DNA from: Squalus acanthias | Taxonomy: Eukaryota | Assembly: GCA_030390025.1 (NCBI GenBank) | Contig: CM059431.1 | Coordinates: forward strand, 100,628,001 to 100,692,000 | DNA: 64,000 bases | Reading direction: 5' to 3' | In this document: one piece after another, positions 16,954 through 55,013 of the stretch | Position numbering within the stretch: the first letter of the stretch is position 1 | How the letters are laid out: each line of letters begins with the position of its first letter | Made by a program: the position numbers and the translations under genes | Notes under the pieces: model-generated | The model's database searches: none | Told to the model about the DNA's origin: nothing | What the model saw: only the letters and a program-made list of their open reading frames with translations

Positions 16954-17118
16954 TGATGCGGAGATGCCGGTGTTGGACTGGGGTGGACAAAAATGAGAAG
17001 TCGCACAACACCAGGTTATAGTCCAACAGTTTTATTTACCTGAAGAAGGAGCAGCGCTCCGAAAGCTCGTAATTTTAAGTAAAACTGTTGGACTATAACC
17101 TGGTGTTGTGCGACTTCT
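16954..17118 (+). mobile_element. Penelope-derived hairpin mini-element (family B)
   Basis: 14-bp direct repeat catctattacatca (16940-16953 / 17119-17132); 41-bp perfect inverted repeat; same sequence as the terminal repeats at 29510-29605 and 54340-54470. Confidence 0.85.
17036..17072 (+). ncRNA. Minimal type I hammerhead ribozyme motif (family B)
   Basis: ttac-CTGAAGA-A-GGAGC agc GCTCC-GAAA-GC-TC-gtaa. Confidence 0.8.
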
Positions 17119-18287
17119 CATCTATTACATCAGCATCAGTGCCGTTGAAACTATCTCACCTTGGTCCTCAGAATCCCACCACGATCAGCCCCAACACCAG
17201 CAGCACCAACAACAACACCAACCTTCTCCGCAATCAACTGATGCTGCACAGGACATCAGCACCTGACCACATTGCTGCCTGGGACGCCAGGGATGGCCTC
17301 ACCATGGCCAGATTTACTTCACTTGTAGCTGTACATCCTGACTACCACATGATGCGCCAGGTTGGCACCACCCCACACCAACACCATAAAGCATCCCTAC
17401 AATGCCCAAGCCATTCCTTTCACACTCATCACCATTGCGGGGGGGTACCGTTATGTCTCACCATTCACTGCAACTCACTAAGCCTCTTCCAAAGGTGCAC
17501 ACAAATCTGTCCAAGAAAATAAAGATTTCAATGTTTGACAGCACATTAACAGAAACTTCACATAAACATTGCATAAAACACCAATGCCTACCCTTGTGTG
17601 TTGGTATGATTGGACAAGGATGAGTGTGAGGGGTGGTTAGTGAGATGGGGACGTGATAATGTAGATAGAGAGAGGGATGGGTGGCGGTGCGAGGTAAGTT
17701 GGTGTGAGTAAGGATGTGCAGGAGTAGGGTAGGGAAGGCAGAGTGATGGGGATATGATGAGTGGCACAGCAGGATGAGGTTGAGTGTGGCTTGGCAGTAA
17801 CATTTTGTGATCTACTGCGATCATTGAAAGGTTTGCGCCACTGCAGCCTGGTCCTCCTGACGACATCCCTGCTGGTGCCCTCCTGTGCAATGTGCAACCT
17901 GGCTGCGTTGGTCTCCTGGGAAGGTCTCTTCCGCCCATGGGAAGGGAAGAGATATGGAGGGAGTAATGGGAGAGCCTGGGTGCAGCGCTTTCAGTGTTTG
18001 CAGCACCTCAATGCTGTAGAACACTGACAGCACAACTGGCAAAATTAATTTGCGCATGGTCCCTTTAAGGAAACCGGCTGATGACGCATCATCGAATGAC
18101 GTCATCAGACCCGCTTCCTTCAATTGGCCGGGAAACGCGCTGGGCAGGTTTAACATGCCCAACCATCGTAAAATCATCCACAGAGCACGCTGGAGCCAGC
18201 AGTGAGGTCGGAGCCGCCACCGACCCCGGCCTCACCGAACCCGCTGAGGTAGGCGAAATCGCGGCTTTAGTGTCAGAGGAGTGTGGC

Positions 18288-18570
18288 ATCATAGAATCCT
18301 AGAATAATACAGCACACAAGGAGGCCATTCAGCCCATCGAGTCTGCACTGGCTCTTTCGAAGAGCAATCCAGTTAGTCCCACTCCCCCGCTCTTCCCCCA
18401 TATTCTTGCATTTTTTTTCCTTCAAGTATTTATTCAATTCCCTTTCAAAGTTTACTATTGAATCTGTATCCACCACACTATCAGGCAGTGCATTCCAAAT
18501 CCTAACCACTCATTGCGTGGAAAAGTTTTTCCTCATGTCGCCTCTGGTTCTTTTGTCAATCAACCTAAAT
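18288..18570 (-). mobile_element. CR1 3' end
   Basis: ORF 18273..18509 VRIWNALP plus 3' UTR. Confidence 0.8.
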
Positions 18571-19277
18571 TCTTAATTTGCTTTAAGGCAAGTTGATGTG
18601 ATACGATACTTTACAATTGCACATTTTATTGTTTCTTACAATAGTTTTGACTGAAAAAAAATGAACTGGGCATTGAAATTATTCTATCGTCAGGAAAGTT
18701 TGCTCTGGCAACAGAAAGAATGTTCATTACTCAATAGAATTTGAACTGGATGAAAAGCTGAAAAATATTACTTATGAACCTCCTACCTGATCTATACAAT
18801 GTCATGTTTATGTGTTGCATTATTCATGCTGAGCTAAATTGGACAGTAACCTGAAACTGTGCAAAGCTTATCAACAACAACATGTATTTATATCGTGCCA
18901 TTAACGTAGTATAACGTAGTCCCAAGGCACTTCACAGGAGGGTTATAAAACAAAATTGGGCTTGTCTATTTGCAACACCAAATTTCTGATTGGTCCCCTT
19001 GGAGGACAAGATACACCCAACAGTTTGTCTGGAATGTGTAATTTCATCCTGCCTGCTGGAGTAATCAAAATCTTTCCAATGTGTAATTTTATCCATTCAT
19101 TGTGACAGCCAGGCTCCAGAGCGCTCAGTGCTAACACTACCGCTTTCAGAGAACAGACAGGGCTCATTCTCCCGGTTTAGGAGCACTCACAGTGCTCACA
19201 CTGCCGAGTTCCGATGTGAGGCCATGGAGAGATTTTAACATGAGGATGAGAATTTTAGAAATCAAGGTCTTGGTGGA

Positions 19278-19425
19278 CAATGTTCCCTATACTTTTTTGT
19301 TTAACGGGCTGCGCGGTCCATTCAAAATTTCGCGCATGCGCAAAATCTCCCATTCAAGAGCCGGTAAGCGGTCTGCGTGGGACCTCCAGACGGCTGTGCA
19401 GCTGTGCAGCTTAGTGGGAACGTTG
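19278..19425. mobile_element. hAT-type MITE copy 2, inside an L2 fragment (-)
   Basis: Perfect 8-bp TSD ttggtgga (19270-19277 / 19426-19433); TIR CAATGTTCCC / GGGAACGTTG. Confidence 0.88.
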
Positions 19426-19959
19426 TTGGTGGACCAGGAGCCAATGTAGGTCAATGAGCACAGGGGTGATGGGTGAATGGGACTTGCTGCGTGTTAGGAC
19501 ACGGGTAGCAGAGCTTTGGATGAGCTCAAGTTCATTGGCAGTGGAAGATGGGTGGCTAGCCAGGAGAAGATTGGAATAGTCGGGTCGGCAAATAACACAC
19601 AAATGTAATTTTATGCACGTTGTAGGACCAAAAACAGAATATGCACTTGTTTTTAAAAATTTATTTATTTACAGCCCATCCCTACTTTCCCTTGAGAGGG
19701 TGGTAGTGAGCTGCCTTCTTGAACCACTGTAGCCTGTGTGTGTGGGGGGGGCGGGGCGGGCGGGAGAACGTGATCCAGGCCTAACAGGGGGCGGGAGAAC
19801 GTGATCCATCTTCCCATCTGGATCATGTTCTTGTTCTCATTCCCCGCCCCGCCCCTTTAGCGACTTGGATCACATTCTTCCCCCCTCCCCGCTGTTATCA
19901 CTGTGCTCCCCCCGCCAACATGTTCCTGACCTTCTCTCCCCGAGTTCCTGACCTTCTCC

Positions 19960-22840: not shown

Positions 22841-23890
22841 CGAAAGCAAAATACTGCGGATGCTGGAAATCTGAAATAAAAACAGAAAATGCTGGAAATA
22901 CTCAGCAGGTCAGGCATCATCTGTAGAGAGAGAAACAGAGCGGAAGAGACTGGGCAAGGGGAGAAAAAATAGAGTCGAGATAGGAAGAGATAAGTTCCGT
23001 GGGGCAAGAACAGGCTGAAACGATGGGTCTTCCAGGGCAGTCCTGTTTGTGGATCTTGGGAAGGAGGTAGAAGCGGGCTGTGCGGGGTTGGGGAGCTATG
23101 AGGTTGGCGGCCGTGGAGGGAAGATCTCCAGAGGAGATGAGGTCAGTGACAGTGACTCCTCCCTTCCCACTGTCCAGGGCCCCAAACACTCTTTCCAGGT
23201 GAAACAGCGATTTACTTGTACTTCTTGCAATTTAATATACTGTATTCGCTGCTCACGATGCGGTCTCCTCTACACTGGGGAGACCAAATGCAGATTGGGT
23301 GACCGCTTTGCAGAACACCTCTGTTCAGTCCGTAAGGGTGACCCCGAGCTTCCGGTCACCTGTCACTTTAATTCCCCGCTCCACTCCCACGCTGACCTCT
23401 CCGTCCTCGGCCTCTTACACTGTTCCAATGAAGCTCAATGTAAGCTCGAGGAACAGCACCTCATCTTTCGATTAGGCACTTTACAGCCTTCTGGACTCAA
23501 CATCGAGTTCAACAACTTCAGATCATAACTTCTGCCCCTATCTTTTTTTTTCTCTCTCTCACATGGCTGCTGTCGATCATTCTGTCATTGCCATTTACAC
23601 TTCATCTAGAGTCATCTTTTGTTTCTTAACTTGTCCCATTACCATCTCCTTTTGCCTTGCACCATCATCCCTTTTGTCTCTTAATCTCTCCTGCCTTCCA
23701 TCCTAGCACAGACCTTCCCTTTTGTTCTTTCCCTCCCCTCCCCCCGCCCCTACACTTGCTTAAAAACCTGTTACATCTCCAACTTTTTCCAGTTCTGACG
23801 AAGGGTCATCAACCTGAAACGTTAACTGTTTCTCTCTCTACAGATGCTGCCTGACCTGCTGAGTATTTCCAGCATTTTCTGTTTTTATTT
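22841..23890 (+). mobile_element. Penelope-like element (family A): inverted terminal-repeat piece, inverted RT piece, GIY-YIG 3' part, terminal repeat
   Basis: RT motif FYLLPKIHK..PGRPIVS (-); endonuclease NLIYCIRCSRCGLLYTGET..RFAEH (+); 13-bp TSD aaaaatctatcaa (22828-22840 / 23891-23903) inside a CR1 3' end. Confidence 0.9.
23790..23828 (+). ncRNA. Minimal type I hammerhead ribozyme motif (family A)
   Basis: cagtt-CTGACGA-A-GGGT catca ACCT-GAAA-CG-TT-aactg. Confidence 0.78.
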
Positions 23891-26620: not shown

Positions 26621-26625
26621 TTCGA

Positions 26626-28911: not shown

Positions 28912-29609
28912 TGCACCGCGGCATGGTACATCGGCGAGACCATGCAGACACTGAGACAACGTATGAACGAGCACCGCGCAACAATCGCCAGGCAGGATTG
29001 TTACCTCCCAGTCGGGGAACACTTCAGCAGTCAAGGACATTCAGCCTCGGATCTGCGGGTAAGCGTTCTCCAAGGCAACCTTAGAAACACACGACAACGC
29101 AAAATCATTGAGCAGAAACTGATAGCCAAGTTCCGCACTCATGAAGACGGTCTCAACCGGGATCTTGGGTTTATGTCACGATACATGACGTGATCCGGAC
29201 TCGAGTCGTCGTTGGCTTGTTCACAGATGTGATTCCCAGTAAAAATTTTCCCAGTAAAAAAGTAAAAATTTTAAAGCTTTTCGTTTTACATACAGACGGC
29301 AGCTTTTGACACGTTAGAACCCCTGCGACTACACCTCATTGTCTCAGTTGTATCTTGCTATGTCTTTGATGTGGTACCTTCCTGGCTGACTTAATTAACT
29401 TTATCACACCTCGGCAGATAGTCAGGATGATTTAATTTAGTGGTCTGCAATTGTAAGGTACACATGCTTTGTTCTCTATCTATATATGCTTTGGCGATTC
29501 TGTATCTAATTTACTTCACCTGAGGAAGGAGCAATCGATAGCTCCGAAAGCTTGTGATTTCAAATAAAACTGTTGGACTATAACCTGGTGTTGTGCGACC
29601 TCTCAATTT
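28912..29609 (+). mobile_element. Penelope-like element (family B), 5'-truncated: GIY-YIG C-terminus plus terminal repeat
   Basis: WYIGETMQTLRQRMNEHR...GLNRDLG; 12-bp TSD tatctcatagaa (28900-28911 / 29610-29621). Confidence 0.92.
29516..29557 (+). ncRNA. Minimal type I hammerhead ribozyme motif (family B)
   Basis: tcac-CTGAGGA-A-GGAGC aatcgata GCTCC-GAAA-GC-TT-gtga. Confidence 0.82.
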
Positions 29610-31969
29610 TATCTCATAGAAGGCAGAGGGTGGTGGTGGATGGAACATTTTCGGACTGGAGACCAGTTACCAGCGGTGTGCCACAGGGGTCGGTGCTGGG
29701 TCCTCTGCTGTTTGTGATTTTTATCAATGACTTGGAGGAGGGGACTGAAGGGTGGATCAGTAAATTTGCTGATGACACCAAGATTGGTGGAGTAGTGGAT
29801 GAGGTGGAGGGCAGTTGTAGGCTGCAAAGAGACATTGATAGGATGCAGAGCTGGGCCGAAAAATGGCAGATGGAATTTAACCCTGATAAGTGCGAGGTGA
29901 TTCATTTTGGTAGGGCAAATTTGAATAAGGATTACAGGGTCAACGGCAGGGTTCTGAGGAACGTGGAGGAGCAGAGGGATCTGGGGGTTCATATCCACAG
30001 ATCTCTGAAGGTTGCCACTCAAGTGGATAGAGCAGTAAAGAAGGCCTATGGTGTGTTGGCGTTTATTAACAGAGGGTTTGAGTTTAAGAACCGTGTGGTT
30101 ATGCTGCAACTGTACAGGACCTTGGTGAGACCACATTTGGAATATTGTGTGCAGTTCTGGTCACCTCACTATAGGAAGGACGTGGAAGCATTGGAAAGAG
30201 TGCAAAGGAGATTTACCAGGATGCTGCCTGGTTTGGGGGGGAGGTCTTATGAGGAAAGATTGAGGGAGTTGGGGCTTTTCTCTTTAGAGCGGAGGAGGAT
30301 GAGAGGCGACTTAATAGAGGTTTATAAGATGATGAGGGGGATAGATAGAGTGGATGTTCAGAGACTATTTCCTCGGGTAGAGGCAGCTGTTACAAGGGGG
30401 CATAGCTATAAGGTGCATGTGGGGAGATATAGAAGGGATGTCCGAGGTAGATTCTTTACTCAGAGAGTGGTTGGGGTGTGGAATGGACTGCCTGCTGTGA
30501 TAGTGGAGTCGGACACTTTAGGAACTTTCAAGCGGTTATTGGATAAGCACATGGAGCACACCAGAGTGACAGGGAGTGTGATAGCTTGATCTTGGTCTCG
30601 GACAATGCTCGGCACAACATCGAGGGCCGAAGGGCCTGTACTGTGCTGTACTGTTCTATGTTCTATGTACACCTATTCCAACAAAGCTTAACATTTAATG
30701 GGGTATTTAACAGCGATACTACCGCAGAAAAGCCGATGTTTTTGTCAGTTTCACTGATTTCCCCGATTACCGGCTATGGGATGGGGATGCACAGCGCAGC
30801 CAGTATCGGAGCAGTGAATGACTGACAGCTACATCCTGAAGTTGCGGTCAGTTTCATTGGGGTAATGGCGGCGAACGCTGACAGTTTCCGGGCAAAAATG
30901 TTTTAAATAGCGCCTTTGTAACTGATGCTATGGTAATGGCAAATGCTCAGTGCCATTTGCCCAAAATAGGCGGCTGTTGGGATAAGCAGGGTCAGTGTTA
31001 GTGGTGGGAACTGCGCTATTATGGAGCTTTGCTTCCAAATCACTTCAATGACAAGGTCTGACATCTTTTATTAAGATATGGCTCTTGCGTTTCTTTCAGA
31101 AACCTTCGCTCTAAACCCATACTGTACAAACACTAAAGATATTCTATTTTATTTTTTGAGTTTTGAGCCCTAATAAAGGACTGAGGCCGACACCAGCAAC
31201 ACAAAGAACAAGTGTAAGGAATTTCCGAATATCATCTTAATCATCATATAGAACACAGTTTGGAACATCAATCCTTGGCTCAGGGTCCATGATACTTAAA
31301 CTGAGGAACGAAATGCAAATTGAATTCCAAACTAATTTCTGACCACAGATCATTTGGATAACGATAAAACTATAAATTATTTCTCCGAAACATAAATTGA
31401 AGAGCCAGGGTAATTGCTTCATAGGATCCAAGTTACACCTGTCCAAAGGCCTGACATACTTCCATTGAGAACCTTTGCAATCTGTCCTCTGTCGAAACAG
31501 TCTCTCCCCACCCCAGCTCCTTAAAACTCTTGTTTCAAAGTTAGAAAAACTACCAACTTTTTTAAAATTCTAAATTCAATTTTCCATAAATTAGAACTTT
31601 TAAAAAGAGAAACAGCTGGGGTACAATTTAGCCAAGTAATTATGCTGGCAGAGAACAAGAGGAGTGCCAAATTTCTAATAAGCAACAAGGTATCTAGTGA
31701 ACCAAATAAACACCTCCCTATAAAATCTTTAAGGCTAATCCAGGAGACTATCTAAATACACGGTTACACAAGTCACAGGAGAAAGGATAGACCCGAAACT
31801 ATTTGGAGTTCGGCACATGGATCATCTCTACTTAATTAGTACGAGATTTTCAATAACATATTGTTTTAAATTAGACTTGATAAGAAAATATTTATTTCAT
31901 TTGGCTTAATTACTATGTTTTCATGCTGTTCCCGTCCCTTTCAGTACATGCCAGGTTTCCACTAGTTAC

Positions 31970-32045
31970 CTCGAATTACATAATTGTCCAGTGCCTCTTC
32001 CATTCTCTGCAACGCTTCTGCACGGCTAGCTCCATATGTAACCAA
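31970..32045 (-). CDS. PCCA: PCCA exon (exon 16 equivalent, 76 nt)
   Basis: atttcag|TTG...CGA G|gtaact; encodes [25 protein letters not shown](G). Confidence 0.96.
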
Positions 32046-32304
32046 CTGAAATAGAAGAGTACAAATGGATCGAAGTAATCTGAAGGTACATGTGCTGTAA
32101 ATTTGTTAGAAAAACCCCCCAAAGTTGAACAAACTTATCGGAATATAAATTACTCAACTCATACTCTGCATATTTGGAAAGATCCAGTTTATTTACTTCC
32201 TATTCTATTTAAGAACCTTCAAATGGAGCAATGCAGTGGCATTCAGTGTAGCATGGTACACCTACTCTTACATTGGTTTCATGCTGATGCAGTGTCATTG
32301 TTAG

Positions 32305-32735
32305 TCGTGGCTCAGTGGGTAGCACACTGAGTCAGAAGAACGTGGGTTTGAGTCCCACTCCAAAGACTTGAGCACAAAATCTAGACTGACACTCCCAGTG
32401 CTGCATTGTCGGAGGTGCCGCCTTACGGATGAGACTTTAAACCGAGGCCCCGTCCGCCCTCTCAGGTGGACGTAACAAGATCCCATGGCACTATTTTGAA
32501 GAAGAGCAAGGGAGTTCTCCCTGGTGTCCTGGCCAATATTTATCCCTCAATCAACATCACTTAAACAGATTATCTGGTCATTTTCTCATTGCTGTTTGTG
32601 GGAGCTTGCTGTGCGCAAATTGGCTGCTGCGCTTCCTACATTACAACACTGACTACACTTCAAAAAGTACTTCATTGGCTGTAATGCGCTTCCTGGGGTT
32701 GTGAAAGGTGCTATATAAATGCAAGTTCTTTCTTT
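32305..32735 (+). mobile_element. Deu-domain SINE, near full length
   Basis: tRNA-like head (gtggctcagtggg A box, gggtttgagtccc B box), conserved body, L2-like tail. Confidence 0.88.
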
Positions 32736-38403: not shown

Positions 38404-38472
38404 TTTTGATATCATAGGATCGTAATAAATACTGATGTCACTTCCTTCTTGAATGCCACTGTCAATTCGGAC
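38404..38472 (-). CDS. PCCA: PCCA exon (exon 15 equivalent, 69 nt)
   Basis: tcggtag|GTC...AAA|gttagt; encodes [23 protein letters not shown]. Confidence 0.97.
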
Positions 38473-39944: not shown

Positions 39945-40480
39945 ACATAGGAACGTTCAGCCCCTCGAGCCTGTTCTGCCATTCAATGAGATCCTGGCTG
40001 ATCTGCCATCTAACTCCATATATCCACCTTTGGCCCATATCCCTTAATACCTTTGGTTAACAAAAAGTTAATTACAAGTTGTTGTTGCTGCTATCAATCT
40101 CAGATTTAGCATTAACAACTGATCTAGCATCAATTGCCATTTGCGGAAGAGAGTTCCAAACTTCTACCACCCTTTGTGTGTAGAAGTGTTTCCTAATTTC
40201 ACTCCTGAAAGGTCTGGCTCTAATTTTTAGACTATGCCCCCTAGTCCTAGACTCCCCAACCAGTGGAATAGTTTCTCTCTATCGACCCTATCTGTTCCCC
40301 TTAATATCCTGAAAACTTCGATCAGATCACCCCTTAACCTTCTAAATTCTAGGGAATACAACCCTAGTTTGTGTAATCTCTCCTCGTAACTTAACCCTTG
40401 AAGTCCGGGTATCATTCTGGTAAACCTACGCTGCCCTCCCTCCAAGGCCAATATATCCTTCCTAAGGTGTGGTGCCCAGA
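39945..40480 (-). mobile_element. CR1 3' fragment
   Basis: ORF 40227..40499 FWAPHLRKDILALE; close relative of 25915-26407 and 35110-35615. Confidence 0.88.
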
Positions 40481-40737
40481 AAAGAATGATCGTAACCAAA
40501 GTTTTTCAAATCACAACTCCCAACTTCAGTTAGTTAATAGTTAAAACTTGCCTGCACTCACTGTTCCTATTTCAATGGTTAGATGGAGGAAGGCTACTGG
40601 ACGAAGTGCAGATGCATTTTTCAAAGCAGGGAAAGGTAAAATACTGGAAGAGCCAGTGCTAATGTGCAAAAGTACACCATCCGTTCTTACTGCCCACGGC
40701 TGTGGACTTCCAGTTTAACTATAATTTGCTTCCTCTT

Positions 40738-41472
40738 CACTGTCCCATCAAACACTCCCAGGGCAGGCACAGCACGGGTTAGATACAGAGTAAAGCTCTC
40801 TCTACACTGTCCCATCAAACACTCCCAGGGCAGGTACAGCACGGGTTAAATAGAGTAAAGCTCCCTCTACACTGTCCCATCAAACACTCCCAAAGCAAGT
40901 ACAGCATGGGTTAAATAGAGTAAAGCTCCCTCTACACTGTCCCATCAACTCTCTCAGGGCAGGTACAGCATGGGTTAGATACAGAGTAAAGCTCCCTCTA
41001 CACTGTCCCATCAACTCTCTCAGGGCAGGTACAGCACGGGTTAGATAGAGTAAAGCTCCCTCTACACTGCCCCATCAAACACTCCCAGGGCAGGTACAGC
41101 ACGGGTTAGATACAGAGTAAAGCTCCCTCTACACTGTCCCATCAAACACTCCCAGGGCAGGTACAGCACGGGTTAGATACAGAGTGAAGCTCCCTCTACA
41201 CTGTCCCATCAAACACTCCCAGGGCAGGTACAGCACGGGTTAGATATAGAGTAAAGCGCCCTCTACACTGTCCCATCAGCACTCCCAAAGCAGGTACAGC
41301 ATGGGTTAGATATAGAGTAAAGCTCCCTCTACACTGTCCCATCAGCACTCCCAGGGCAGGTACAGCACGGGTTAGATATAGAGTAAAGCTCCCTCTACAC
41401 TGTCCCCATCAAACACTCCCAGGGCAGGTACAGCACGAGTTAGATATAGAGCAAAGCTCCCTCTACACTGTT
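40738..41472. repeat. Tandem repeat, unit about 65-67 bp, about 11 copies
   Basis: ctctacactgtcccatcaaacactcccagggcaggtacagcacgggttagatacagagtaaagctcc repeated head to tail. Confidence 0.95.
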
Positions 41473-42387
41473 CCAGCGACAAAACAGCATCGGTGGGTAG
41501 GACAGATTATTTTAAAACAATTCGCTGAGAGCTTGATCTCAGTAACAAATACCAAATATTTATTTCCCCGTGTATTTCTGTTGGTGAGAGGGGGGTGAAG
41601 GTTCCAATAGTGAATATTTTTGGTTCGTGAAATTAGGAAACTGATGGAATGAGAATTCAGTATCTACCGGAAATAAAAAGCAAATTTTCTTCGACCCTTC
41701 TGAATTTATATATTAAAGTAAGCAACATTCAGCGAGGCGATTTAGTCACATACTTTATTCAATTATTCAAGATTATAGCATTATTCCAACTTCACTTCCA
41801 GAAAATTCAGATGGGGAGGGGAAGAGAGGAAACAAAAACACTTTTGATCCTCATCAGAACAAACTATAATCTCTCACTCATTCCTGTTCCTACAGTACAG
41901 CCCCCACAACTTAAAATGACAACGTTTAAAACAGCCAGTTGCGTATATCGACCAAAAAGTGATAACCCATAAACATTTGTATTAACGTCAATTTCAAAGT
42001 TGCCGGTTGCAGCGTTTTACGTGCTTGCCGTGCTTACGTGCGAATGACCAGGGTACACAGTCAGTTACTGGCACAGAATCCATCAGATTCAGCAACATTA
42101 GAGTCTAGAGCAACGGTTAGTGTCAAAGTTGGGCAGTTAGTGCGCGCGGTAAAGTCCAAAGTTAGCATTTCTTTTGTTTCTGTGTCAATAGTCTCCACAT
42201 ATACACAGCTAACTCAGGGTGATGAAAAGCACCACCCAAACAGATTCAAAATAATAAAAATAATTTAATTCCCAGTGGTTATACGTCAGTTTGGTGCTTT
42301 CCCGGTCAGGTCAACACATATAATAAACCAGTGACGGCAACTTTCTTGTTATATAACGTTGCTACTTTATTCCAGGCATCGCATATG

Positions 42388-43300
42388 GCAACAACAACTT
42401 GCATTTATATGGCACCTTTAACGTAGTAAAACGTCCCAAGGCGCTTCACAGGAGCGATTATTAAACAAAATTTGACACCGAGCCACATGAAAGAAAGACT
42501 TGCATTTATATAGCGCATTTCACGACCATCGGATGTCTCAGAGCACTTTACAGCCAATTAAGTACTTTTTGAAGTGTAGTCACTGTTGTAATGTAAAAAA
42601 TGCGGCAGCCAATTTGCGCACAGCAAGCTCCCACAAACAGCAATGTGATAATCACCATATAATCTGTTTTTGTTATGTTGATTGAGGGATAAATAATGGC
42701 CAGGACACCGGGGAGAACTCCCCTGCTCTTCTTCGAAATAGTGCCATGGGATCTTTCACCCGAGAGAGCAGACAGGGCCTCGGTTTAACGTCTCATCTGA
42801 AAGATGGCATCTCTGACAGTGCAGCACTCCCTCAGCACTACACTGGAGTGTCAGCCTAGATTTTTGTGCTCGAGTCCCTGGAGAGTGGGATAAAGAGATA
42901 TTAGGACAGGTGGGTCAAAGACTTTTAAGGAGCATCTTAAAGGAGGAAAGAAAGGTTTAGGGAGGCGGAGAGGTTGAGGGAGGGAATTCCAGAGCTTGGG
43001 GCCCAGGCAGCTGAAGGCACGGCCGCCAATGGTGGGGTGATGAAAATCGGGGTTGCGCAAGAGGCCAGAATTGGAGGAGCGCAGAGATCACGGCGGGGGG
43101 GGGGGGGGGGGGGGGGCGGCGGTTGTAGGGCTGGAGGAGGTTAGCGAGATAGGGAGGGCGAGAGGCATGGAGGGATTTGAACACAATGATGAAAATGTTA
43201 AAATCGAGGCATTGCCGGACTGGGAGCCTATGTAGGTCAACCAGCACAGGGGGTGATGAGTGAACGGGACTGGGTGCGAGTTAAGACACGGGCAGTGGAT
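42388..43300 (-). mobile_element. L2 3' fragment with an inserted Deu-domain SINE (about 42492-42885)
   Basis: L2 tail (caacaacaacttgcatttatat), then the SINE reverse complement, then L2 resumes (aagagatattaggacagg...). Confidence 0.85.
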
Positions 43301-46270
43301 CACGTTTGCTCACTATAAGCAGTGGGGACTGTATTACTGCTCTCCAGTGCTATGGCTGCCAATGCGCCTACCGCCACTGAAATTTCCCTTTCCAATGCCG
43401 ATTTCTAACTTCCTGTATAACAATGAATCATTTTGAAACATACCTTAAAAGGGACTAGTAATAAACAGATTAGCTAAGAGTTTGAGACATGTATGCATGC
43501 AAATTAAGTTTTACACATTATTTATGCTCCATTCTAAACCTTTTTACCCTGAAAAATCATCATGGGCTATAAGCTCCTTTCTTCCAGCTCACCTGCTGAT
43601 ATTTTTATCTTAATTGTTACTGTGTCGTGCAATATTTGCCATTACGCGGTTAGTGACCACCAATTCTAGATAATGGAAAACCCTTTCCAAGAAAGAAAAC
43701 AAACACAATTATGTGGGAGTAGCCCCTTGGCTCATGCTAATACTCAGTGCTAAATTCCAAGATTTTAATACTACCTCCAACTAATATTTAAATTTATTGC
43801 CATGGCAAAGTTCCCCCCCCCACCCCCACCATTTTCAGCCAGACCAACAGAATGAACGCATGGTAATGGAACTTGCAAGCAAATTCTCTGTCTGGGAAGG
43901 GATACAAGTTCAAAAATAATCAAGTAGAGGACCCAAATAAAAGACTCCCATTGACGAATGGAGACGAGAATGATGGCCAGTCGACAATTCAAACTGCTCC
44001 ATCCTTCCAGCGAATAAAAGAATGCGGAGACAAAAAAAGTACAACTGATAGGGATGCTGGAGAGTCGTTCTACAGGTCCAGCAATCTCCAAAGGGTTAAA
44101 AATGTGTTTCATTCACTCACAAATGAAGGATATAACTGAACTGAAAGGTATCATTGGTGCGCCATTCTGTTAACGCGATAATTGGAACAATTGCTTTAGC
44201 ATTCTTAACTTTCCAAAATTGGCCCACCTAATCGCTGCAACTCTATGTTTTCACGAGGAGAGGAAAGCACTGGACATGACCTACAAGTTAAGTGGGAAAA
44301 CTTAACTGTATCACGCACTCAGCTACTTGTCAAAACCCCTCACATGAAAAATAACTGTCACCTTATTGATATGAAACAGAATGAAGATAACGCAAGAGCA
44401 GGATAAATGTCAGATCCCACTCAACATAATCTGTTTCGCAATGTTCCAGAGCCTCCAGCGTAATTAAAAATTCTGCTTATCGGTACCCTGACAAGCTACG
44501 TGAAGCTATCAGGCGTCTCCCCACCCTTCATTCTCTATTCACCTCTCCCCTAAGCACTACTCCCAGTCTGCCTTGTTTACCTGACAAGTGACAGAACAAT
44601 CTGATTAAATGTTTGCAGGGGGAGGGGGCTTGTGAGCTTCCATGACAGGCCAAAAGTGATCACCATGGAGATACATAATTACAGCTGTCAAAAGCATCTA
44701 CTGTCCCGCTGGCATCAATTTGATTGCTCCCAGCAATAATGATAGACAAAGCTTAGTGCGCACTCCCCTGCACCCAATCACGTTATCTGTTGCTTGGTCC
44801 ATTTAGCTGACATGCAACATTCACACAAGCAAATAACAGCAGTAAGCATAACATTTAAGGCATTTTAATTGTTTTTTTTCTTTATGCTGATGTCTTACAA
44901 GCGTAAGTGTTATTACATAAAACTCCTGCTGTAGCATTAATTGAAGGAGGATTTGGTGGGACAAGAACCGTAGGGGGTAGAATATGTCCATTATCACTTG
45001 TGCTTTCAACAGGTGGCACGTTTTAAAAACTGCAAATTGCAAAACTTGCAAGGGCAAAAGGTTTGACATCATTTTATCTAGAGGCAAATGGCAAATTTCC
45101 CTGCATTCTCATTCATCCAAAAAAGCAGCTGCTGTATTTTCCTGCACTTTCAGGAATCAGAAAGGCAATTACGTTTTCTTTTTTTAAATATGAAACTCTG
45201 AAGGTGGCGACCTGCAGTTTCCGCTTGGGGGCGCAATCGGCAAACTGCGGCCAGAATCCGCCCATTTGGCCAAGGTGAAATTGCGCCCAGGTTTCGGTGC
45301 AAACTCTTTGGCATAAGCCCGAAGGTCAAAGCTCCCGTGAATCAAGCAGCGCAATGGATCGGAATCGCCAAAACCCTAATTACGGTGTCACAGGTAATGA
45401 GTTTGGGAACCGTCTTTATCAACTCGGATGGTCATTTTGGAATTCTGTGACATCTTCTTTGCTTTTCCATTACCATATCTGATATGAATTTCTTTAATAA
45501 CTGTTACTGAAATAGTTCCGTTGAATGTATGGGCTTTAGTAACATTACTTTTTCACTTGGAATCACAATTCAAACTGTGGTCCCGCTTCACAAAGAGGAG
45601 CGGGATGGCCGTGAAATGAGCCATTCACCAACTTTTTAAACTAATTGATTGATTTCTGCGGCAGCAGAGCAGGACTCGTGGCTTCAACTGACTGCCGGTC
45701 AGGTGATTAACGCTGGATTAATGTGGCCATGGGTGTCTCTGAGAATCTGAACCAGCGCAATTGACGGAAACTCGGCTTTCGAACCCGGCCCGGGGGGGCG
45801 GGGGGAGGGTTGACCAGTTTCGTGGGCGGGGCCTGGTTAGGGCGAAAGGATCATTGAACGGACTTAAAAGATCGCGCGGATACTTGGGCGCAATGCAGTT
45901 ATGGGCGTGACTCGCTTATATGCCTAAAATTCTGCGACCTTTTGCGCAACTTGACTTGGTCTCACCCAGTTTAAGCCGTTATCCGGGCGGAAATCATGTG
46001 GCGATTCCAGACTGGCGTTCCTTTGGAAAGTGCATTCGAAAAAAAAACCTCAATTACTTCTGGTAACCTTTATTCTTCAAACAGTGTGTGCGACATTTAC
46101 TGAACGCCTCCTTATATTCTTTTAGTTGAAGTGGAGAAATGAATCACGAGGTTTCTAATGTTTTCGTATCTCACTGAGAAGTCATAACTGATTTTGTTTA
46201 AATATATAAAAACAGCTGTGGCTTTCATCAAAAGGCACTCAGCAAACAACACAGCACTCAGATAACTTAC

Positions 46271-46345
46271 ATTGGGCACGTGCAAAGGTTCTTTATACTG
46301 GGAGAGGCGGCCAATCGAAGGCAGTCCAAAAGATTTGTAGGGATC
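46271..46345 (-). CDS. PCCA: PCCA exon (exon 14 equivalent, 75 nt)
   Basis: tttctag|GAT...AAT|gtaagt; encodes [25 protein letters not shown]. Confidence 0.97.
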
Positions 46346-46876
46346 CTAGAAAAGGAAGTTCAAACAAGAGGAAGCATTAACTTTAAAATAAAACACAGGA
46401 AACAAGGTTAACTGTTCATACAAGCTGGAGCTATTGACGAGGCTATTTTTGATCACTTAAGGCATTAAATTACACGAGGAGCCTTTTCACTCCTCATTTT
46501 TATCACCGACCAAATGACCAATAAACACCTCTCCCATTCAAAAGATTTGCATCGGTTTCCTGATTAGCATAACAAGTTACAAAATTATTAGAGTGCCTTT
46601 AAAGACAACAGAGAAAGCAACAGCACAAAGCCTTCAGGATGTCAGAGGCAATTAAGCAAGGATCACTTTATGGAAGGAAAAGAACTAAAGTTTAGGGAAG
46701 CTGGGGGGGGGGGGGGGGGGGGCGAGCTATTGTCCAACCTGCATCATCTCGCACCAGCGATATCAAGCGTCTGCTTATTAATTTTATATTCCAACTTAAT
46801 GACTAAGCAAGTCTATCCCAGCTCTAAATCCATCAGATGGCATTTGGCACGAACTGCGATGCCAACTAAAATTTAC

Positions 46877-47020
46877 CTCTGCATACACTCTGCATTCAAT
46901 TGCCCAGCCATTGATGGGAATATCAGCTTGCTTGTGGCAAAGTGGGTAACCCTTGGCAACGCGGATCATTTCTTGGACTAGGTCCAGGCCAGTAATGCAT
47001 TCGGTGACAGGATGCTCAAC
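46877..47020 (-). CDS. PCCA: PCCA exon (exon 13 equivalent, 144 nt)
   Basis: ccttgcag|GTT...GAG|gtaaat; encodes [48 protein letters not shown] (inside ORF 46796..47059). Confidence 0.97.
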
Positions 47021-47192
47021 CTGCAAGGTCACAAATTGCCAGTCATTAAGGGAAAACAACGAAAGAAGAAAATCTACACAAAGCTGGAAAGTGCTAGAGC
47101 TCGCCAGCCAAGGACAAGACTGTTACTCCAGCCGTCGCTTCTTATTTCATTATCAGTAAATGGAGACTTTAAACAAAAACAGAGAATCGAAA

Positions 47193-47668
47193 ACACACAC
47201 ACCCTCACACATGCACACACTCAGACATACACACGATTCTGTGTGACATGCACACACACATACATTCACACACTCAGACATTCACACATGCACACACTCA
47301 GACATACACACATACATGCGCACACACATGCAGACACATACACACACCCTCACACATGCACACACTCAGACATACACACATACACACACTCAGACATACA
47401 CATACACACTCAGACATACACACACACACTCAGACATACACACATGCACACACTCAGACATACACACATGCACACTCAGACATACACACTCAGACATACA
47501 CACATACATGCGCACACACATGCAGACACATACACACCCTCACATACACACCCACTCACACATACACACCCTCAGACCACACACACACATAGATGCAAAC
47601 ACACTCAACACACCCTCACACACACTCTCACGCGCACACACACATATACACACACACGTAATCACACA
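47193..47668. repeat. Degenerate (CA)n-rich repeat with a cacactcagacata subunit
   Basis: Seen directly; explains the HT-rich ORFs. Confidence 0.95.
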
Positions 47669-49482
47669 AACCACAGTTATGTAATCCTGTATGGTTTTAA
47701 GAAACGGTTATTAGCCTCTGTTGATAGGTCTGCTCTGTTACTTAACACTATATGCTCTGAAGTGTTCTGTGATTTCCTGACGAACAGTTTATCCTAAATC
47801 TCATTCATTTGCCTGCTTCACCTAACCTGTCCTGACAAGCAACCAGATTAATGTAATCTTACATCAACCCAGTGCAGCAGAAATGAGCAGATGGATCCTT
47901 CAGGTTTTTTTTTCCCTCCAGACTAAACTGTGCAGTGCTTAGCATGCACAATAGCTGGGCTGAACCAATGCAGTCACTGTGCGATCAGCAAATTGCTGCT
48001 AACAGCTTCGCATGATGCTGTTAAGGGAATACCCAGTCTGAATACACATACTGGCCAGTCTAGGTCTCTAACCTCAGTCAGGATGGATCTAGCAGAGGGA
48101 GAAAAAAAGCAAGCATTTTTATCTTGACATTTGAAACCATGTAAATCAGATGGCTGCATTTCAAAAAATTCAATGTGGGTTTTCTGGATATAAGTGAATG
48201 TGCTGACATCCAGGTAAAACTCCAATGCTACCATTTTTAATGTCGAGCAAAATGTTACCAGACACTTGTTTACTGGGCGATTTCAGCAGAGACTGGCTCA
48301 GTATATACAGAGCAGATGGTGCAATTAACTCAGTACGGGCTTTTATTCCAAGGAAATTTTCTTCATAATTAACTGACATTTTGACATTTTTCTAATAAAA
48401 GTCATTACTTAAAGAGCAAACAGTTTGTACAGTGTAAATCTGGCAAATGGGACTGTGGAACAAGCAAACACATTTAATTCTTTTAAAGGATAATTTAGTT
48501 ATCAGGCAACAGCACTCAATTTGAGTAATCAAAACTTCGACCACGACAAAACTGTTTTCTCTGCATTCCGAATGCTGCGTATGATAAATACTGAAAATCA
48601 CAAACCTTTTTTTATGCTTCAGCAATACCGCTGAACTGTCCCAATGTATATTTTCATCTTGTTGCAAAAATACTGCACAAGACTCTCAGTGGGTTTCTAT
48701 ATTTATAGTACGAGCTGGACTGACCACCTTTCCCAGTTGGACCAAGCTGGTCAAATGAAGAACGTTTCAAAAAAAAAGAATGCATGACCAGAAAAGGAGC
48801 TGTAAGATATAGCCTGCCAAAAAAACTGCTCACTAGCCATGATACTGCTACATGAAGTCTTCAGAACCAATTCTCAGTGGCTCAGCTCACTACTATGTTG
48901 CCTACTGTGGCTTTTCAGCCGTACATATCAAAGGAGAGAAAACGGCCGAGGCTCCAGCTCTTGATACAGATCCAGTGACCGCCCCCTGCCCCCCCCCCCC
49001 CCCCCGCCCCGCTGAAAGTGCATGTATGCAACATTTGGGTGAGATGAGGATCGGGCTCTGTGGTACCCAGCGTGGTAGATTAGCCTCCTGAAGCTCACTG
49101 TCCAAAAGGTACCACATTAAGAAATGGCCGCTTGGGATGATTATCAAGGGAGGCTTCTCAAACCATTCCAATAAAAAGGCAGCAATTCATGCTGCCCCAT
49201 AAATGTAGATTCCTGAAATCCACCGGGGCGGGGGGTGGAGGGTGTGGGCAATTAAAGAACCATTTCCTAGATGGTTGGCTGCCTTTGGATCCCTCAGAGC
49301 TTAAAAAACATAATCTAGTAAGAAACCCAACAACAGCTCACTTTGCAACCAAAGTTTTCCAGACATTCACCAAGGTGAGAGACGGTATAGCAATTCACAA
49401 CGAGCTTGGGAGAAGGATCCTGGGGTAGAGCCCATCACCTTCAATTGGTCAGCAACTTGGTCAAATGCATAAAAAGATAGAA

Positions 49483-49857
49483 AGATCTTGCATTTATAAA
49501 GCGTCTTTCACGACCTCAGGACGTCCCAAAGCGCTTTACTGCCAATGAAGTACTTTTGAACTACTGTTGTAATGTAGGAAACGCGACAGCCAATCTGCGC
49601 GCAGCAAGTTCCCACAAACAGCAATGTGATAATGACTAGCCCGTCTGTTTTGGTGATGTTGGTGGAGGGATAAATATTGGCCAAGACCCCGGGGAGAACT
49701 CCCCTGCTTGTCTTCGAAATGGTGCCATGGGATCTTTTACATCCCGAGAGGGCAGACCGGACCTCGGTTTACCATCTCATCAGAAAGACGGCCCCTCCGA
49801 TAGTGCAGCACTCCCTCAGTACTGCACTGGGAGTGGCAGCCTAGATTTTGTGCTCAA
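49483..49857 (-). mobile_element. Deu-domain SINE, head truncated
   Basis: Reverse complement of the family body and tail. Confidence 0.87.
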
Positions 49858-50694
49858 GATTTTTAATGCATCATTAATATCTAGCAGTGTATATATTAGC
49901 CAATTCAATTCTAAACCCTCCGCAGGTTATATCCCACTCCACACAGAATATCTAGATTGGACTACTTGCCAGAGGATAGATGTTATCTCAGAAGTGAGTA
50001 TTCTCCTTCACATTCTGCAGCACTTAGCAAAATCTTCCCCTTTTTGAAAACCATAGATGAGCACAATAGCCAAGGCAACTGGGGTAACAATTGATAACGA
50101 TCCTGAAATATTTTTATTGCAATTACTCTCAGATATCGAAACTTCACAGTGATCACAGAGAATGATTCCATCAGCATAATTGGCAGCAAAGAGGCTTATT
50201 GTCCCGCCATGGTAATCATGGAAGCCACCTGGGTAATCCTACTAGGTGAATTAAGTCCTTAAAAAAATGAACGTAGAGCCTGGTGTTTTTCATGGGAATA
50301 CACAAAGTCCATTAGGTGCAGAAATGAGCAATGGAGGTATATAGTTAGGAATCAATCTCTCTACCAGAGCCTGGGAATGCAGGGGGCTACATTTCCAACA
50401 CATCCAGGGTTAGAGCAGGGTACTTGGCGTTCTCCTTTCTGCTGGTCATTTGGAAGTGGTAACAACCCTGAGGTTGATGGCGGAGGCGGAGGTGGATAGG
50501 GACACCTGAGAGTACGTGCAAAAGTTGACTCCATGTTTCTGGATGATGCTACTGAGGGGTAGCACACAAACCATTAACAGGAGGGGCCAAGAATGGGAGT
50601 ACATGACTGATCACTGCGGGCACAGTAAGAAAAGCCATGAAAGGAGATGTGGTAGCTCTCTCAATGCGACAGACTGGAGTGGAATGATGAATCA

Positions 50695-51078
50695 GCATAG
50701 GAACAGGAGGAGGCCATTCAGCCCCTTGAGCCTGCTCCACCTTTCAATTAGATCATGACGGATCTGTACATTAACTCCATTTACCCGCCTTGATTCCATA
50801 TCCCTTAATACCCTTACTTATCAATTGACCCCCAGCCTCAACAGATTTTTGGGGAGGGAGTTCCAGATTTCCACCACCCTTTGTGTGAAGAAGTGCTTCC
50901 TGACATCACCCCTGAACGGCCTGGCTCTAATTTTAAGGTTATGTCCCCATGTTCTGGACTCCCCCACCAGAAGAAATAGTTTCTCTCTACCCGATCAACT
51001 CCTTTAATCATCTTAAACACCTCATTTAGATCACCCCTTAATCTTCTATACTCAAAGGAATTAAAGCCTAATCTATAC
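50695..51078 (-). mobile_element. CR1 3' fragment
   Basis: YRRLRGDLNEVFK plus 3' UTR. Confidence 0.8.
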
Positions 51079-51604
51079 AATACCAAGAAATATTTTGAAA
51101 TGTGGATGTGAGTGCTGTTCGCTTTCTTGTACAGCACAATGTCTCAACTTTACGAGTGGGTCTGATAAATTGGGAATAGTAGTAAAGAATGTTATGGACA
51201 AAACTCAAATCAAGTAATTTCCTCCCATTCTGCTGCCAAAAGGAGTGGCAAGATTAAGATAAACATTTAAAAAACATCCTGATTCAATCAGTATTCAAAA
51301 GCTGAAATTGTGGTCAGTACAGTGTATGTGCAACACCTCAGAAGTGTGTGAGCACCTCTCTTTAGGGTCACCAGGAAACACCCATCCTCTAAACTGGGTG
51401 TGAGATTTCAGATTCTCAACATCACTCCACTAAGCAACAACTGTCCACTTTTACCATTCAAACTCAACACAAGTACTTAAAATAGGCAAAAGATCACCAT
51501 AAAACTGCTATCTAAATGAAACAGTTACTTCAACTCAATTCACCAAATTCTGCTTTTAAAGGCAGAATTATGAAATGAAAGAGAGAAAGAAAGAAAGAGA
51601 AAGA

Positions 51605-51958
51605 AATCCAGTTAGTCCCACCCCACTGCTATTGCCCCATAGCTCTGCAGATTTCTCCCTTTCAAGTATTTATCCAATTCCCTTTCGAAAGTTACTATTG
51701 AATCTGCTTCCACCGCCCTTTCAGGCAGCGCATTCCAGATCACAACAACTCGCTGCGTAAAAAAAATGTCTTCTCGTCTCCCCATTGGATGTTTTGCCAA
51801 TTACCTTCAATCTGTGTCCTCTGGTTACTGACCCTCCTGCCAGTGGAAACAGTTTCTCCTTATTTACTCTATCGAAACCCTTCCCAATTTTGAGCACCTC
51901 TATTAAATCTCCCCTTAACCTTCCCTGCTCCAGCTTCTCCAGTCTCTCCATGTAACTT
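51605..51958 (-). mobile_element. CR1 3' fragment
   Basis: RLRGDLIEVLK..TRGHRLK..FFTQRVV. Confidence 0.82.
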
Positions 51959-52325
51959 TTCATTCTAATTTTCTCCCCTTTCCTTCTGAAGGTGCTGATG
52001 CTCACTGCGAACAGCTCTAAAGGTGCTAGCTGCCCTCTAGTACCTGAACCAAGTGGTAAATCTGCACGTGAAGCTAGACAGTGAAGTTTGAAAGGCCTTT
52101 TGACTGTCCTCACTTTATGTTCCAAGTGTGCTTTCCAGCAGGAGTCAGTGAATAAGCGATGAGAAGCAAGATCGCTGCTTGATGCTCCCCCTCCCAGAGC
52201 AGTCACGCCATCTGTAGAGCTGCTACCGTCATACCAGCTGAGATCAGCTGACGGAATGAGGATTGAATTTGTGACCTATCCAGCCCACACCTGCTAGTTC
52301 ACTTTACCAGTTCAGCATTTGAGGG

Positions 52326-52965
52326 ACCCTCTCAGGTGGACTTAAAAGATCCCACGGCACTAATTCGAAGAAGAGCAGGGGAGTTCTCCCCGGTGTCCTG
52401 GGGCCAATATTTATCCCTCAACCAACATCACTAAAAACAGATGATCTGGTCATTATCTCATTGCTGTTTGTGGGACCTTGCTGCGCGTAAAATTGGCTGA
52501 CGCGTTTCCTAAATCATTCGGCCCATCGTGCCTGAACCGGCTCTTTGAAAGAACTCTCCAATTAGTCCCACTCCCCTGCCTTTTCCCCAATGCCCTGCAA
52601 ATGTTTCCTTTGCAAGTTTATATCCAATTCACTTTTGAAAGTTACTACTGAATCTGCTTCCACCGCCCTTTCAGGCAGCGCGTTCCAGATCATCATAACT
52701 CACTGTGTAAAAAATGTTCTCATTTCCCCACTGGTTCTTTTGCCGATTATCTTAAATCTGTGTCCTCTGGTTACCGACCCTCCTGCCACTGGAAACAGTT
52801 TCTCCCTATCGAATCTATCAGAACCCCTCATAATTTTGAACGCCTCTATTAAATCTCCCATAAACCTTCTCTGCTCTAAGGAGGACAACCCCAGCTTCTC
52901 CAGTCTCTCCACGTAACTGAAGCCCCCTCATCCCTGGTACCGTTCTGGTAAATCTCCTCTGTATA
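52326..52965. mobile_element. SINE fragment (+, 52326-52512) joined to a CR1 3' fragment (-)
   Basis: Family motifs; ORF 52700..52912. Confidence 0.82.
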
Positions 52966-53507
52966 CTCAACTACTTTTCCTCCTGTGAAATAACTCGGAG
53001 ATCCTTAAAGGGATAGATAAACAAAATATTAAGGAAACCATTTTAATATCAAACAGCAACAGGCTAATCCTGAGAAAGTATCTTTCCTTTTTTTGTAATA
53101 AAAAGATTACGATCACAGTGAAGAGCAAAGCCGAGCGACGGTTAAACTTCAAGCTTCTATGTAAATATTGTTCCTTTTTTTTCTATTTTAAATCAAAACA
53201 CACATTTTTTTGTTATCCATAAAACACATCTCATTAGTCAGGGTAAGTAGACTGCTGCTTTGAAAAACATTTTCAAAAAGGCTTGTGTTTTATTGCTGAC
53301 ACCAACATAAATTTTAGTGCAACACAGCATGCATCCAGCGCTGCAAAAACTGAAAGGAAATTTTGGCTGCCAAGTGGGAAAAATATCAAAGCGCTGTGGC
53401 TAGCTACATACTGGGGACCCTCTGCAGCACTTAACTGTACCCTCCTCAAGGTCTTTAAGGTCACTATCAAGCAAGGGGTAAAGCGAATACAGCAACCAAA
53501 GCAGCAA

Positions 53508-53925
53508 TTACATAGAATGTACAGCACAGAAACAGGCCATTCGGCCCAACTGGTCCGTGCCGGTGTTTATGCTCCACAAGCCTCCTCCCGCCCCTCTTCA
53601 TCTCACCCTATCAGCGTATCCTTCTATTCCTTTCTCCCTCGTGTGTTTATCTAGCTTCCCCTTAAATATATCTCTGCTATTCAACTACTCCCTGTGGCAG
53701 CGAGTTCCACATTCTCACCACTCTCTGGGTAAAGAAGTTTCTCCTGAATTCCCTGTTGGATCTATTAGTGACTATCTTATATTTATGGCCCCTAGTTCTG
53801 GTCTCCCCCACAAGTGGAAACATCTTCTCTACGTCTACCCTATCAAACCTTTTAATAATCTTAAAGACCTCTATCACCCCTCAGTCTTCTCTTTTCTAGA
53901 GAAAAGAGTCCCAGCCTGTTCAATC
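53508..53925 (-). mobile_element. CR1 3' fragment
   Basis: ORF 53677..53877 TRGHKYK..RRNFFTQRVVRMWNSLP. Confidence 0.85.
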
Positions 53926-54154
53926 TTTGGGTTACCCGCACACTAACCCCGCCACCTCACCCCCTCCACTCGTTCCCAACACGTCAGAACATTCAAATTC
54001 CCTCTAGTTGTCTACATAACTGATTACACTTAAAGAAGATATAAAAATGCAAATTTTTTCTTCTTCCAAATTTCCAAATCAGAGTTCCACATTCTCACCA
54101 GTCTCTGGGTAAAGAACTTCCACCTGAATTCCCAATTGGATTTATTGCTAATAA

Positions 54155-54795
54155 TAGGCTGCAGTTGTTTTCTTTGGAACAGAGGAGGCTGAGGGGAGAC
54201 TTAATTGAGGTGTATAAAATTATGAGGGGCCGAGATAGCATGGATAGGAAGGACCGATTTCCCATGGCAGTTGGAAAGATTAACTGTAATCATCTGGCAG
54301 TGTTCTCTGACTATATATGCTGTGCCTATATGCATCTCTTCACTTCACCTGACGAAGGAGCAGCGCTCCGAAAGCTTGTGATTTCAAATAAAGCTGTTGG
54401 ACTATAACCTGGTGTTGTGCGGCTTCTCACATTTGTCCACCCCAGTCCAACACCGGCATCTCCACATCATGGCTATTTCCCTTAGCAGAGGGTTCAATAA
54501 CCAGGGGGCACAGATTTAAAGTAATTGGTCGGAGGTTTAGAAGGGAGTTGAGGAGAACTTTTTTCACCCAGGGTGTGGTGGGGGTCTGGAACTCACTGCC
54601 TGAAAGGGTGGTAGAGGCAGAAACCCTCATCACATTTAAAAAGTACTTGGATACACACTTGAAGTGCCGTAACCTACAGGGCTACGGACCAAGAGCTGGA
54701 AAGTGGGATTAGGCTGGATCGCTCTTTGTCGGCCGACACGGACACGATGGGCCGAATGGCCTCCTTCTGTGCCGTAAATTTCTATGATTCTATGA
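54155..54795 (+). mobile_element. CR1 3' fragment interrupted by a Penelope family B terminal repeat (about 54271-54474)
   Basis: FSLEQRRLRGDLIEVYK; imperfect duplication atttcccatggcag / atttcccttagcag around the insert. Confidence 0.85.
54345..54381 (+). ncRNA. Minimal type I hammerhead ribozyme motif (family B)
   Basis: tcac-CTGACGA-A-GGAGC agc GCTCC-GAAA-GC-TT-gtga. Confidence 0.83.

Positions 54796-54854: not shown

Positions 54855-55013
<159 letters not shown>

Follow-up and report, generated by a model that had tools for sequence, protein, structure and literature searches.

The question raised by a 64,000-nt stretch of the genome of the shark Squalus acanthias (the window; GenBank assembly GCA_030390025.1, contig CM059431.1, positions 100,628,001 to 100,692,000 of the forward strand, numbered here from its first letter) is whether seven short repeated blocks, which lie in introns of the gene PCCA, belong to self-cleaving RNAs. 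The initial annotation, made from the letters of this stretch, had read them as minimal hammerhead ribozyme motifs of two families, A and B, in the terminal repeats of Penelope-like elements (PLEs). Judging from the sequence, we consider it very likely that the seven are indeed minimal type-I hammerhead motifs and that they belong to two distinct elasmobranch PLE lineages; their catalytic activity we infer. What is observed is the anatomy of the motifs and their covariation, together with their PLE context and their position in introns.

All seven sites read as they had been described (Table 1), and a scan of both strands for CUGANGA, 0-1 extra nucleotide, a helix II of at least 3 bp, GAAA, NN, U, H (not G) and a helix I of at least 4 bp finds them alone: it returns six sites, the one at 36733 being added once U16.1 is relaxed, and nothing else matches in the window. 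The order of parts in family B is a 4-bp helix I (UCAC/GUGA), CUGANGA, A, GGAGC-loop-GCUCC, GAAA, GC, U and H, and in family A it is AGUU, CUGACGA, A, GGGU(C)-loop-(G)ACCY, GAAA, CG, U, U and AACU. The family B helix I had been annotated as tcac/gtga, which is correct for the other B copies and has to be amended at 17036, where the strands are UUAC/GUAA and the pair is kept by a change on both sides. When the seven sites are aligned with an outside relative, the metagenome contig L002 described below, the CUGANGA box (C3-A9) is present in 7/7 window sites and in L002, and both an unpaired A between A9 and G10.1 and the GAAA box (G12-A15.1) are present in 8/8 sequences. The helix III hairpin is absent; positions 15.2/16.2 are palindromic, with GC in four of the eight and CG in the other four, resulting in AGCU or ACGU. 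U16.1 is kept in 7/8, the site at 36733 carrying C in its place, as had been noted, and H17 is C or U in all eight.

With this loose descriptor, 300 dinucleotide-preserving shuffles of the window yielded a mean of 0.01 matches (a single match in 3/300 and two or more in 0/300, against six observed), and a strict version, in which the extra nucleotide is obligatory, helix II has at least 4 bp and 15.2/16.2 is palindromic, yielded none in 300 shuffles against six observed. We have also built a covariance model from the eight sequences and run it with filters off: the seven window sites score 47.7-56.3 bits, which they do by construction, and the information gained is that no decayed additional copy shows up in the window, the next match reaching 10.7 bits (E ~2). 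Copies of the same family are homologous repeats, and the independent units are the two families and L002, not seven.

L002 provides the fairest test, because the window sites had been recognised by their pairing. It is a 1360-nt metagenome contig, presumably animal DNA within an environmental sample, which was found by endonuclease protein homology alone (65% identity) and is the one confirmed locus among 184 pattern matches in the metagenome scan. The contig covers the 3' end of a Penelope element that resembles family B, and the minimal hammerhead at 982-1016 (ACAC-CUGAAGA-A-GGCG/UAA/UGCC-GAAA-GC-UU-GUGU), ~280 nt past the stop codon, is intact. Compared with family B, helix I reads ACAC/GUGU in place of UCAC/GUGA and helix II GGCG/UGCC in place of GGAGC/GCUCC, the core being unchanged, while the ~320 nt of 3' untranslated region (3'UTR) upstream of the motif cannot be aligned between L002 and the window copy: core and pairing are conserved beyond the rest of the repeat. 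The covariation across copies bears out the annotated pairing, as 68 of 69 pair cells in the eight-sequence alignment are standard and 6/9 pairs have changed on both sides, figures that come from three lineages only; control structures slid by 1-3 columns are 11-41% paired, with at most one pair changed on both sides. The two window families themselves share 36% amino acid identity in the endonuclease and have unrelated stems, yet their core and its placement are identical.

The context of the motifs is that of PLEs. The stop codon of an open reading frame (ORF) for a GIY-YIG endonuclease precedes the motif by 260-320 nt (262 nt in family A, 322 nt in family B), and the element 3' end follows it by 50-100 nt. 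In Pfam searches made on in-frame ORF pieces, the family A ORF reaches 22.8 bits with GIY-YIG PF01541 (cut-off 22.6) and the family B remnant gives a weak 17.7 bits. This remnant matches, at 87% identity, the C-terminus (residues 552-643) of P0001, a 643-aa shark protein that carries an RVT_1 domain at residues 183-309. The family A ORF is 36% identical to the P0001 C-terminus and has homologues in rays, skates, sharks and EukProt entries at 56-74% identity (best alignment, 13 matches with E ≤3e-9), and the reverse transcriptase (RT) N-terminal fragment that adjoins it on the opposite strand is 47% identical to P0001 residues 100-161. An RT with a GIY-YIG domain C-terminal to it is the architecture of Penelope-like elements, and the two families are thus two distinct PLE lineages. 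Indeed, the GIY-YIG remnants, the RT-bearing homologue P0001 and the target-site duplications, of 12-15 bp, support the annotated element type, and the shark origin is equally upheld, the nearest homologues of the transposable elements and of PCCA being elasmobranch. One family B insertion (28912-29609) splits the RT ORF of a long interspersed nuclear element (LINE), with RVT_1 profile positions 5-107 before it and 107-204 after it. The 3' ends of the copies are of two kinds lying ~35-40 nt apart, two short and three long in family A and two short and two long in family B.

The designation of terminal repeats holds in part: the motifs do lie in the 3' non-coding part, which forms a pseudo-long-terminal repeat (pseudo-LTR) in tandem elements, but the window has neither a tandem nor a full-length element, nor any full-length ORF. 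By self-BLAST and alignments, all PLE copies in the window are 5'-truncated singles or head-to-head inverted pairs, and this absence of a tandem arrangement concerns the window copies, not the family.

Table 1. Positions of the hammerhead motifs, of the PLE copies that carry them and of the PCCA exons in the window (TSD, target-site duplication)
Feature	Positions	Strand	Remarks
Family B minimal hammerhead	17036..17072	+	UUAC-CUGAAGA-A-GGAGC/AGC/GCUCC-GAAA-GC-UC-GUAA; predicted cut after C17068
Family B minimal hammerhead	29516..29557	+	Loop II of 8 nt; predicted cut after U29553
Family B minimal hammerhead	54345..54381	+	Predicted cut after U54377
Family A minimal hammerhead	23791..23827	+	C-A mismatch weakens helix II; 10.1-11.1 is G-U; predicted cut after U23823
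Family A minimal hammerhead, in divergent copy	34344..34378	+	10.1-11.1 is G-C; predicted cut after U34374
Family A hammerhead	36733..36769	-	C replaces U16.1; sole motif sense to PCCA
Family A minimal hammerhead	37547..37583	+	Predicted cut after U37579
5'-truncated family B insertion, 698 bp	28912..29609	+	GIY-YIG ORF remnant 28912-29190 (93 codons), stop codon 29191-29193; hammerhead in 3'UTR, short tail; 12-bp TSD TATCTCATAGAA at 28900-28911 and 29610-29621
Head-to-head family B composite, single insertion	16954..17120	.	(-) arm ~16954-17037, long tail, without hammerhead; (+) arm ~17031-17120, hammerhead, short tail; TSD TCTATTACATCA at 16942-16953 and 17121-17132
5'-truncated family B copy, long tail	54275..54476	+	Within LINE 3' region; boundaries and imperfect TSD approximate
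Head-to-head family A composite, single insertion	22841..23890	.	(-) arm, RT N-terminal fragment (23173 down to 22941) joined to post-hammerhead long tail (22940 down to 22841); (+) arm 23174-23890, GIY-YIG ORF, 3'UTR, hammerhead, short tail; TSD AAAAATCTATCAA at 22828-22840 and 23891-23903
Older 5'-truncated family A copy, long tail	34009..34477	+	78-80% identity to other A copies
Head-to-head family A composite	36635..37645	.	(-) arm 36635-37367, GIY-YIG remnant, hammerhead, long tail; (+) arm 37368 to ~37645, hammerhead, short tail; TSD ~TTACAGACACCA[A/G]TA at 36620-36634 and 37646-37660
PCCA exons, approximate tblastn limits	31968..63271	-	63271-63161, 61813-61721, 55010-54855, ~47059-46877
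PCCA exons, continued	31968..63271	-	46345-46250, ~38574-38392, 32057-31968

This RNA class is a known one, described in 2014 (Cervera & de la Pena, PMC4209133), and the shark sites are further examples of it. The consensus given there for metazoan PLE minimal hammerheads is NNN-CUGANGAH-G...C-GAAA-N(palindrome)N-U-H-NNN, and the features set out beyond the search descriptor are consensus families that show covariation, a nucleotide interposed between 9 and 10.1, G10.1-C11.1 and a palindromic 15.2-16.2. The annotated description of the shark motifs, minimal type-I hammerheads in which stem III is a palindrome and A9 is followed by an extra nucleotide, agrees with this consensus. In fact, the likeness comprises the type-I topology, the palindromic 15.2/16.2 instead of helix III, the unpaired nucleotide between A9 and G10.1, a helix I of 4-5 bp, the variable N7 and loop II, and the position in PLEs, which is the flanking repeat or the 3' end, the copies being mostly single and truncated; the 2014 account also has opposite-strand pairs 100-700 bp apart, as in the shark head-to-head composites. 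The lamprey entry of the 2014 alignment has the same UCAC/GUGA helix I as family B. The shark helix II, of 4-5 bp, lies at the lower limit of the 5-8 bp given in 2014, and no chondrichthyan is found in the published alignment (supplement file 2), within the parts drawn on. A similar combination of a short palindromic stem III with PLE association is given for the small dimeric PLE hammerhead variants of Lunse, Weinberg and Breaker in a summary (PMC6765202), according to which cleavage as dimers has been proposed and reported.

With a palindrome in place of helix III (A-GC-U or A-CG-U only), a single copy is unable to form this helix alone. In tandem master transcripts, two motifs could pair through the AGCU/ACGU palindrome and through swapped helix I strands, which would give a 4-bp helix III between two composite cores. 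The cut would then fall after H17 (GUU, CUU or CUC), probably slowly and aided by the protein of the element, and cleavage might help to define a unit-length element RNA near the start of reverse transcription. Both catalysis and this role in the processing of element RNA are put forward here, by analogy with work on other PLEs, as the probable function of the motifs. In the shark sequences a long-range stem directly follows the motif, its 3' strand lying in an optional tail of 35-40 nt.

A close parallel is a Poseidon-type PLE of Anolis carolinensis, PAc (Frangieh et al. 2024, PMC11167929), in which the hammerhead also lies just upstream of the reverse-transcription start, two alternative 3' ends result in an optional tail of 30-40 nt, and a stem-loop is present at the start sites. 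The optional tail is a PLE signature explained by two adjacent reverse-transcription start sites (PMC11167929). Unlike in PAc, the shark tails are not AC-rich.

A number of results weigh against the reading of the motifs as hammerhead ribozymes. The window sites were chosen by a pairing-based reading, so that their pairing is partly ascertained and only L002 is free of this bias, and eight sequences of three lineages are the whole sample. The 10.1-11.1 pair is G-C in 5/8 and G-U in 3/8, all three G-U cases being in family A (3/4 of its copies); the published alignment also has U at 11.1 (PMC4209133). Minimum free energy folds of the family A monomer pair the core UGACG with CGUUA, not helix I, and RNAfold/cofold homodimers are domain-swapped monomer folds in which the helix III pairing was not recovered; the folding result is uninformative, since the hammerhead core lies outside what energy models describe. 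The annotated check against Rfam models failed: Rfam 15, searched at gathering thresholds over the whole window, gave no matches, and at E up to 10 on 16900-17200 and 37520-37610 no hammerhead appeared, only weak miRNA-like matches (17005-17109) and one pseudoknot match, so that no hammerhead model matches at any threshold tried. The Rfam hammerhead families (Hammerhead_1 and relatives) share with the shark motifs the CUGANGA and GAAA core boxes and helices I and II, but their models encode a helix III hairpin and loop-loop contacts, both of which the shark motifs lack; the non-match is expected, because the motifs are without helix III. The class is nevertheless without confirmation by any curated model. 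Finally, published minimal hammerheads cleave poorly in vitro, even as dimers (PMC4209133), and in the anole PLE ribozyme mutants have no effect on insertion in vitro, the ribozyme needs the protein of the element and no RNA-seq reads begin or end at the cut site (PMC11167929).

These last results are also what speaks for the alternative that survives best, in which catalysis by the hammerhead-like core matters little or not at all in vivo and PLE 3' ends conserve the block for another purpose, perhaps as part of an RNA element recognised by the RT for target-primed reverse transcription or as part of the pseudo-LTR promoter. To the normal insertion of the ribozyme-dead anole element, the protein requirement and the weak cleavage in vitro one can add that in both families and in L002 conservation runs past the motif into the stem-loop at the reverse-transcription start. 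Yet lineages with unrelated stems conserve exactly the catalytic core and the pairing, which is what a ribozyme needs and not what a protein-binding sequence would. Moreover, cleavage of the anole element is lost in the C3G and G8C mutants and regained in the double mutant (PMC11167929), and fungal and plant PLEs have fully active hammerheads (PMC4209133). We regard a block with little or no catalytic role as unlikely and retain the reading as ribozyme motifs.

It is much less probable still, to the point of being barely tenable, that the motifs derive from non-autonomous tandem repeats (animal non-LTR retrozymes or satellite-type hammerheads) and not from autonomous PLEs. Type-I hammerheads are common to retrozymes and PLEs, and a 2026 preprint has retrozymes in 20/31 vertebrate genomes, its one chondrichthyan included, but here there are no tandem copies, the segment 23100-29700 has only two short unrelated arrays, self-BLAST gives single or inverted copies, and the motifs of both families and of L002 are physically continuous with GIY-YIG ORF remnants. 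That the likeness to a hammerhead arose by chance is next to impossible in our estimation: the core is short, and a loose 21-base pattern has six matches (L003-L008) in 596 billion bases of prokaryote genomes, where ~4 are expected by arithmetic, but with the motif model these six reach only 13.6-21.5 bits, the shuffles of the window never yielded more than one match against six observed, and two unrelated transposable element families and L002 have the motif in the same ORF-relative place with compensatory changes. Pattern scans of viral contigs returned no matches.

The region downstream of the motif follows a common order in the two lineages. In family B the box after the motif (GUUGGACUAUAA...) is conserved and pairs with the beginning of the optional tail. 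The resulting stem has 9 bp (UGUUGGACU/AGUCCAACA) at 54394-54456, at 16968-17029 (-) and at L002:1028-1085, where it is retained with two U-A to U-G changes; in family A the post-hammerhead stem has 7 bp (GAUGCUG/CAGCAUC), as at 36715-36653 (-), and the comparison covers three sequences per family only. Short 3' ends lie within the loop of the stem and long ends past its 3' strand. That hammerhead, stem-loop and optional tail keep this order in two lineages supports a link of the ribozyme to the reverse-transcription start, as in the anole element. Within the same region of family A, an ATG 20 nt past the predicted cut (23843 onward; 37601 onward) opens a frame (MLPDLLSISSIF...) that runs to the element end. 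It recalls PAc, whose ORF starts inside the hammerhead region (PMC11167929), but for the shark families only this in-frame ATG past the family A cut site came to light, and it is a candidate ORF start only.

Each of the head-to-head composites is bounded by one target-site duplication, and with these mapped they form a clean natural record of two-strand priming that could be mined genome-wide. PAc cuts and extends both DNA strands (PMC11167929), as seen in vitro for a PLE protein, which fits the three shark composites. Each of them pairs one long-tail with one short-tail arm (3/3); a non-random pairing of long and short tails was considered and set aside, three composites being too few, and for PAc in vitro no start-site difference between the two strands is reported (PMC11167929). 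In two independent family A insertions, whose target-site duplications differ, an arm begins at the identical nucleotide, 23174 (+) and 37367 (-) (CCAGGGCCCCAAACAC...), and is joined head-to-head to a different partner, an RT N-terminal fragment at 23174 and a 285-nt 3' end at 37367. The shared start suggests a favoured 5' end, a strong reverse-transcription stop or a common truncated master. In the family B composite, the arms form a ~40-bp hairpin at 17005-17109 with the hammerhead in its loop, which resembles miRNA precursors but, at 35.2 bits, falls well short of their gathering score of 142.

A further observation comes from the single-duplication composite at 22841-23890, where a fragment of RT coding sequence is joined to the post-hammerhead tail at 22941|22940 (-), 2 nt downstream of the predicted cut. 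One could suppose that this junction preserves a DNA footprint of ribozyme cleavage in vivo, with reverse transcription of a hammerhead-cleaved RNA proceeding as far as its 5' end before jumping to a second template. We give this idea little credence: it comes from a single case with a 2-nt offset, and the corresponding end in the family B composite is 8 nt from the cut. If it were general, truncated and chimeric PLE junctions would cluster at the cut site genome-wide, and if true it would be the first in vivo evidence of cutting by a minimal hammerhead, which the anole RNA-seq failed to show (PMC11167929).

The host gene was mapped by tblastn with E. coli AccC and then with shark PCCA protein, which gave seven minus-strand matches (Table 1). 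For one exon the best solved relative is human PCCA (E 1.5e-23), followed by MCCC1 (1.4e-14), and the best database matches are PCCA, in agreement with the annotated host gene. Three introns hold motifs, with 54345 in one and 34344, 36733 and 37547 in a second; the sites at 17036, 23791 and 29516 lie downstream of the PCCA exon at 31968. Six of the seven motifs are antisense to PCCA, and the sense copy, at 36733, is the one without U16.1. Intronic transposable elements are generally biased to the antisense orientation. Selection against sense-strand ribozymes in PCCA was therefore rejected as an explanation, the bias being general and the insertion events only six. The window copies are best seen as inert fossils, all 5'-truncated, none in tandem, mostly antisense and with U16.1 lost in the sense copy, and the seven are most likely without effect on the host gene.

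A hammerhead is reported for all PLEs that have been examined, and PLEs are abundant and expanded in shark introns, so that a find of this kind in shark PCCA introns was to be expected. A full-text literature search returned one paper, in which the word 'shark' refers only to a fold shape, and among the papers searched none links shark PLEs to hammerhead ribozymes. The sites add elasmobranch examples to the minimal hammerhead class, which by themselves are of little significance.

Other features of the window are long minisatellite arrays with a ~33-bp unit, visible as self-BLAST matches offset by 33 bp, and with long open frames on both strands at 55170-58765, in the PCCA intron between the 61721 and 55010 exons, and a low-complexity tandem region at 19785-21227 with several open frames on both strands and Pro/Ser/Leu-rich and Gly/Glu/Arg-rich translations. 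LINE reverse-transcriptase remnants are found at 28095-28911 and 29622-30589, which are the two parts split by the family B insertion, and on the minus strand at 5096-5854 and 9985-10931.

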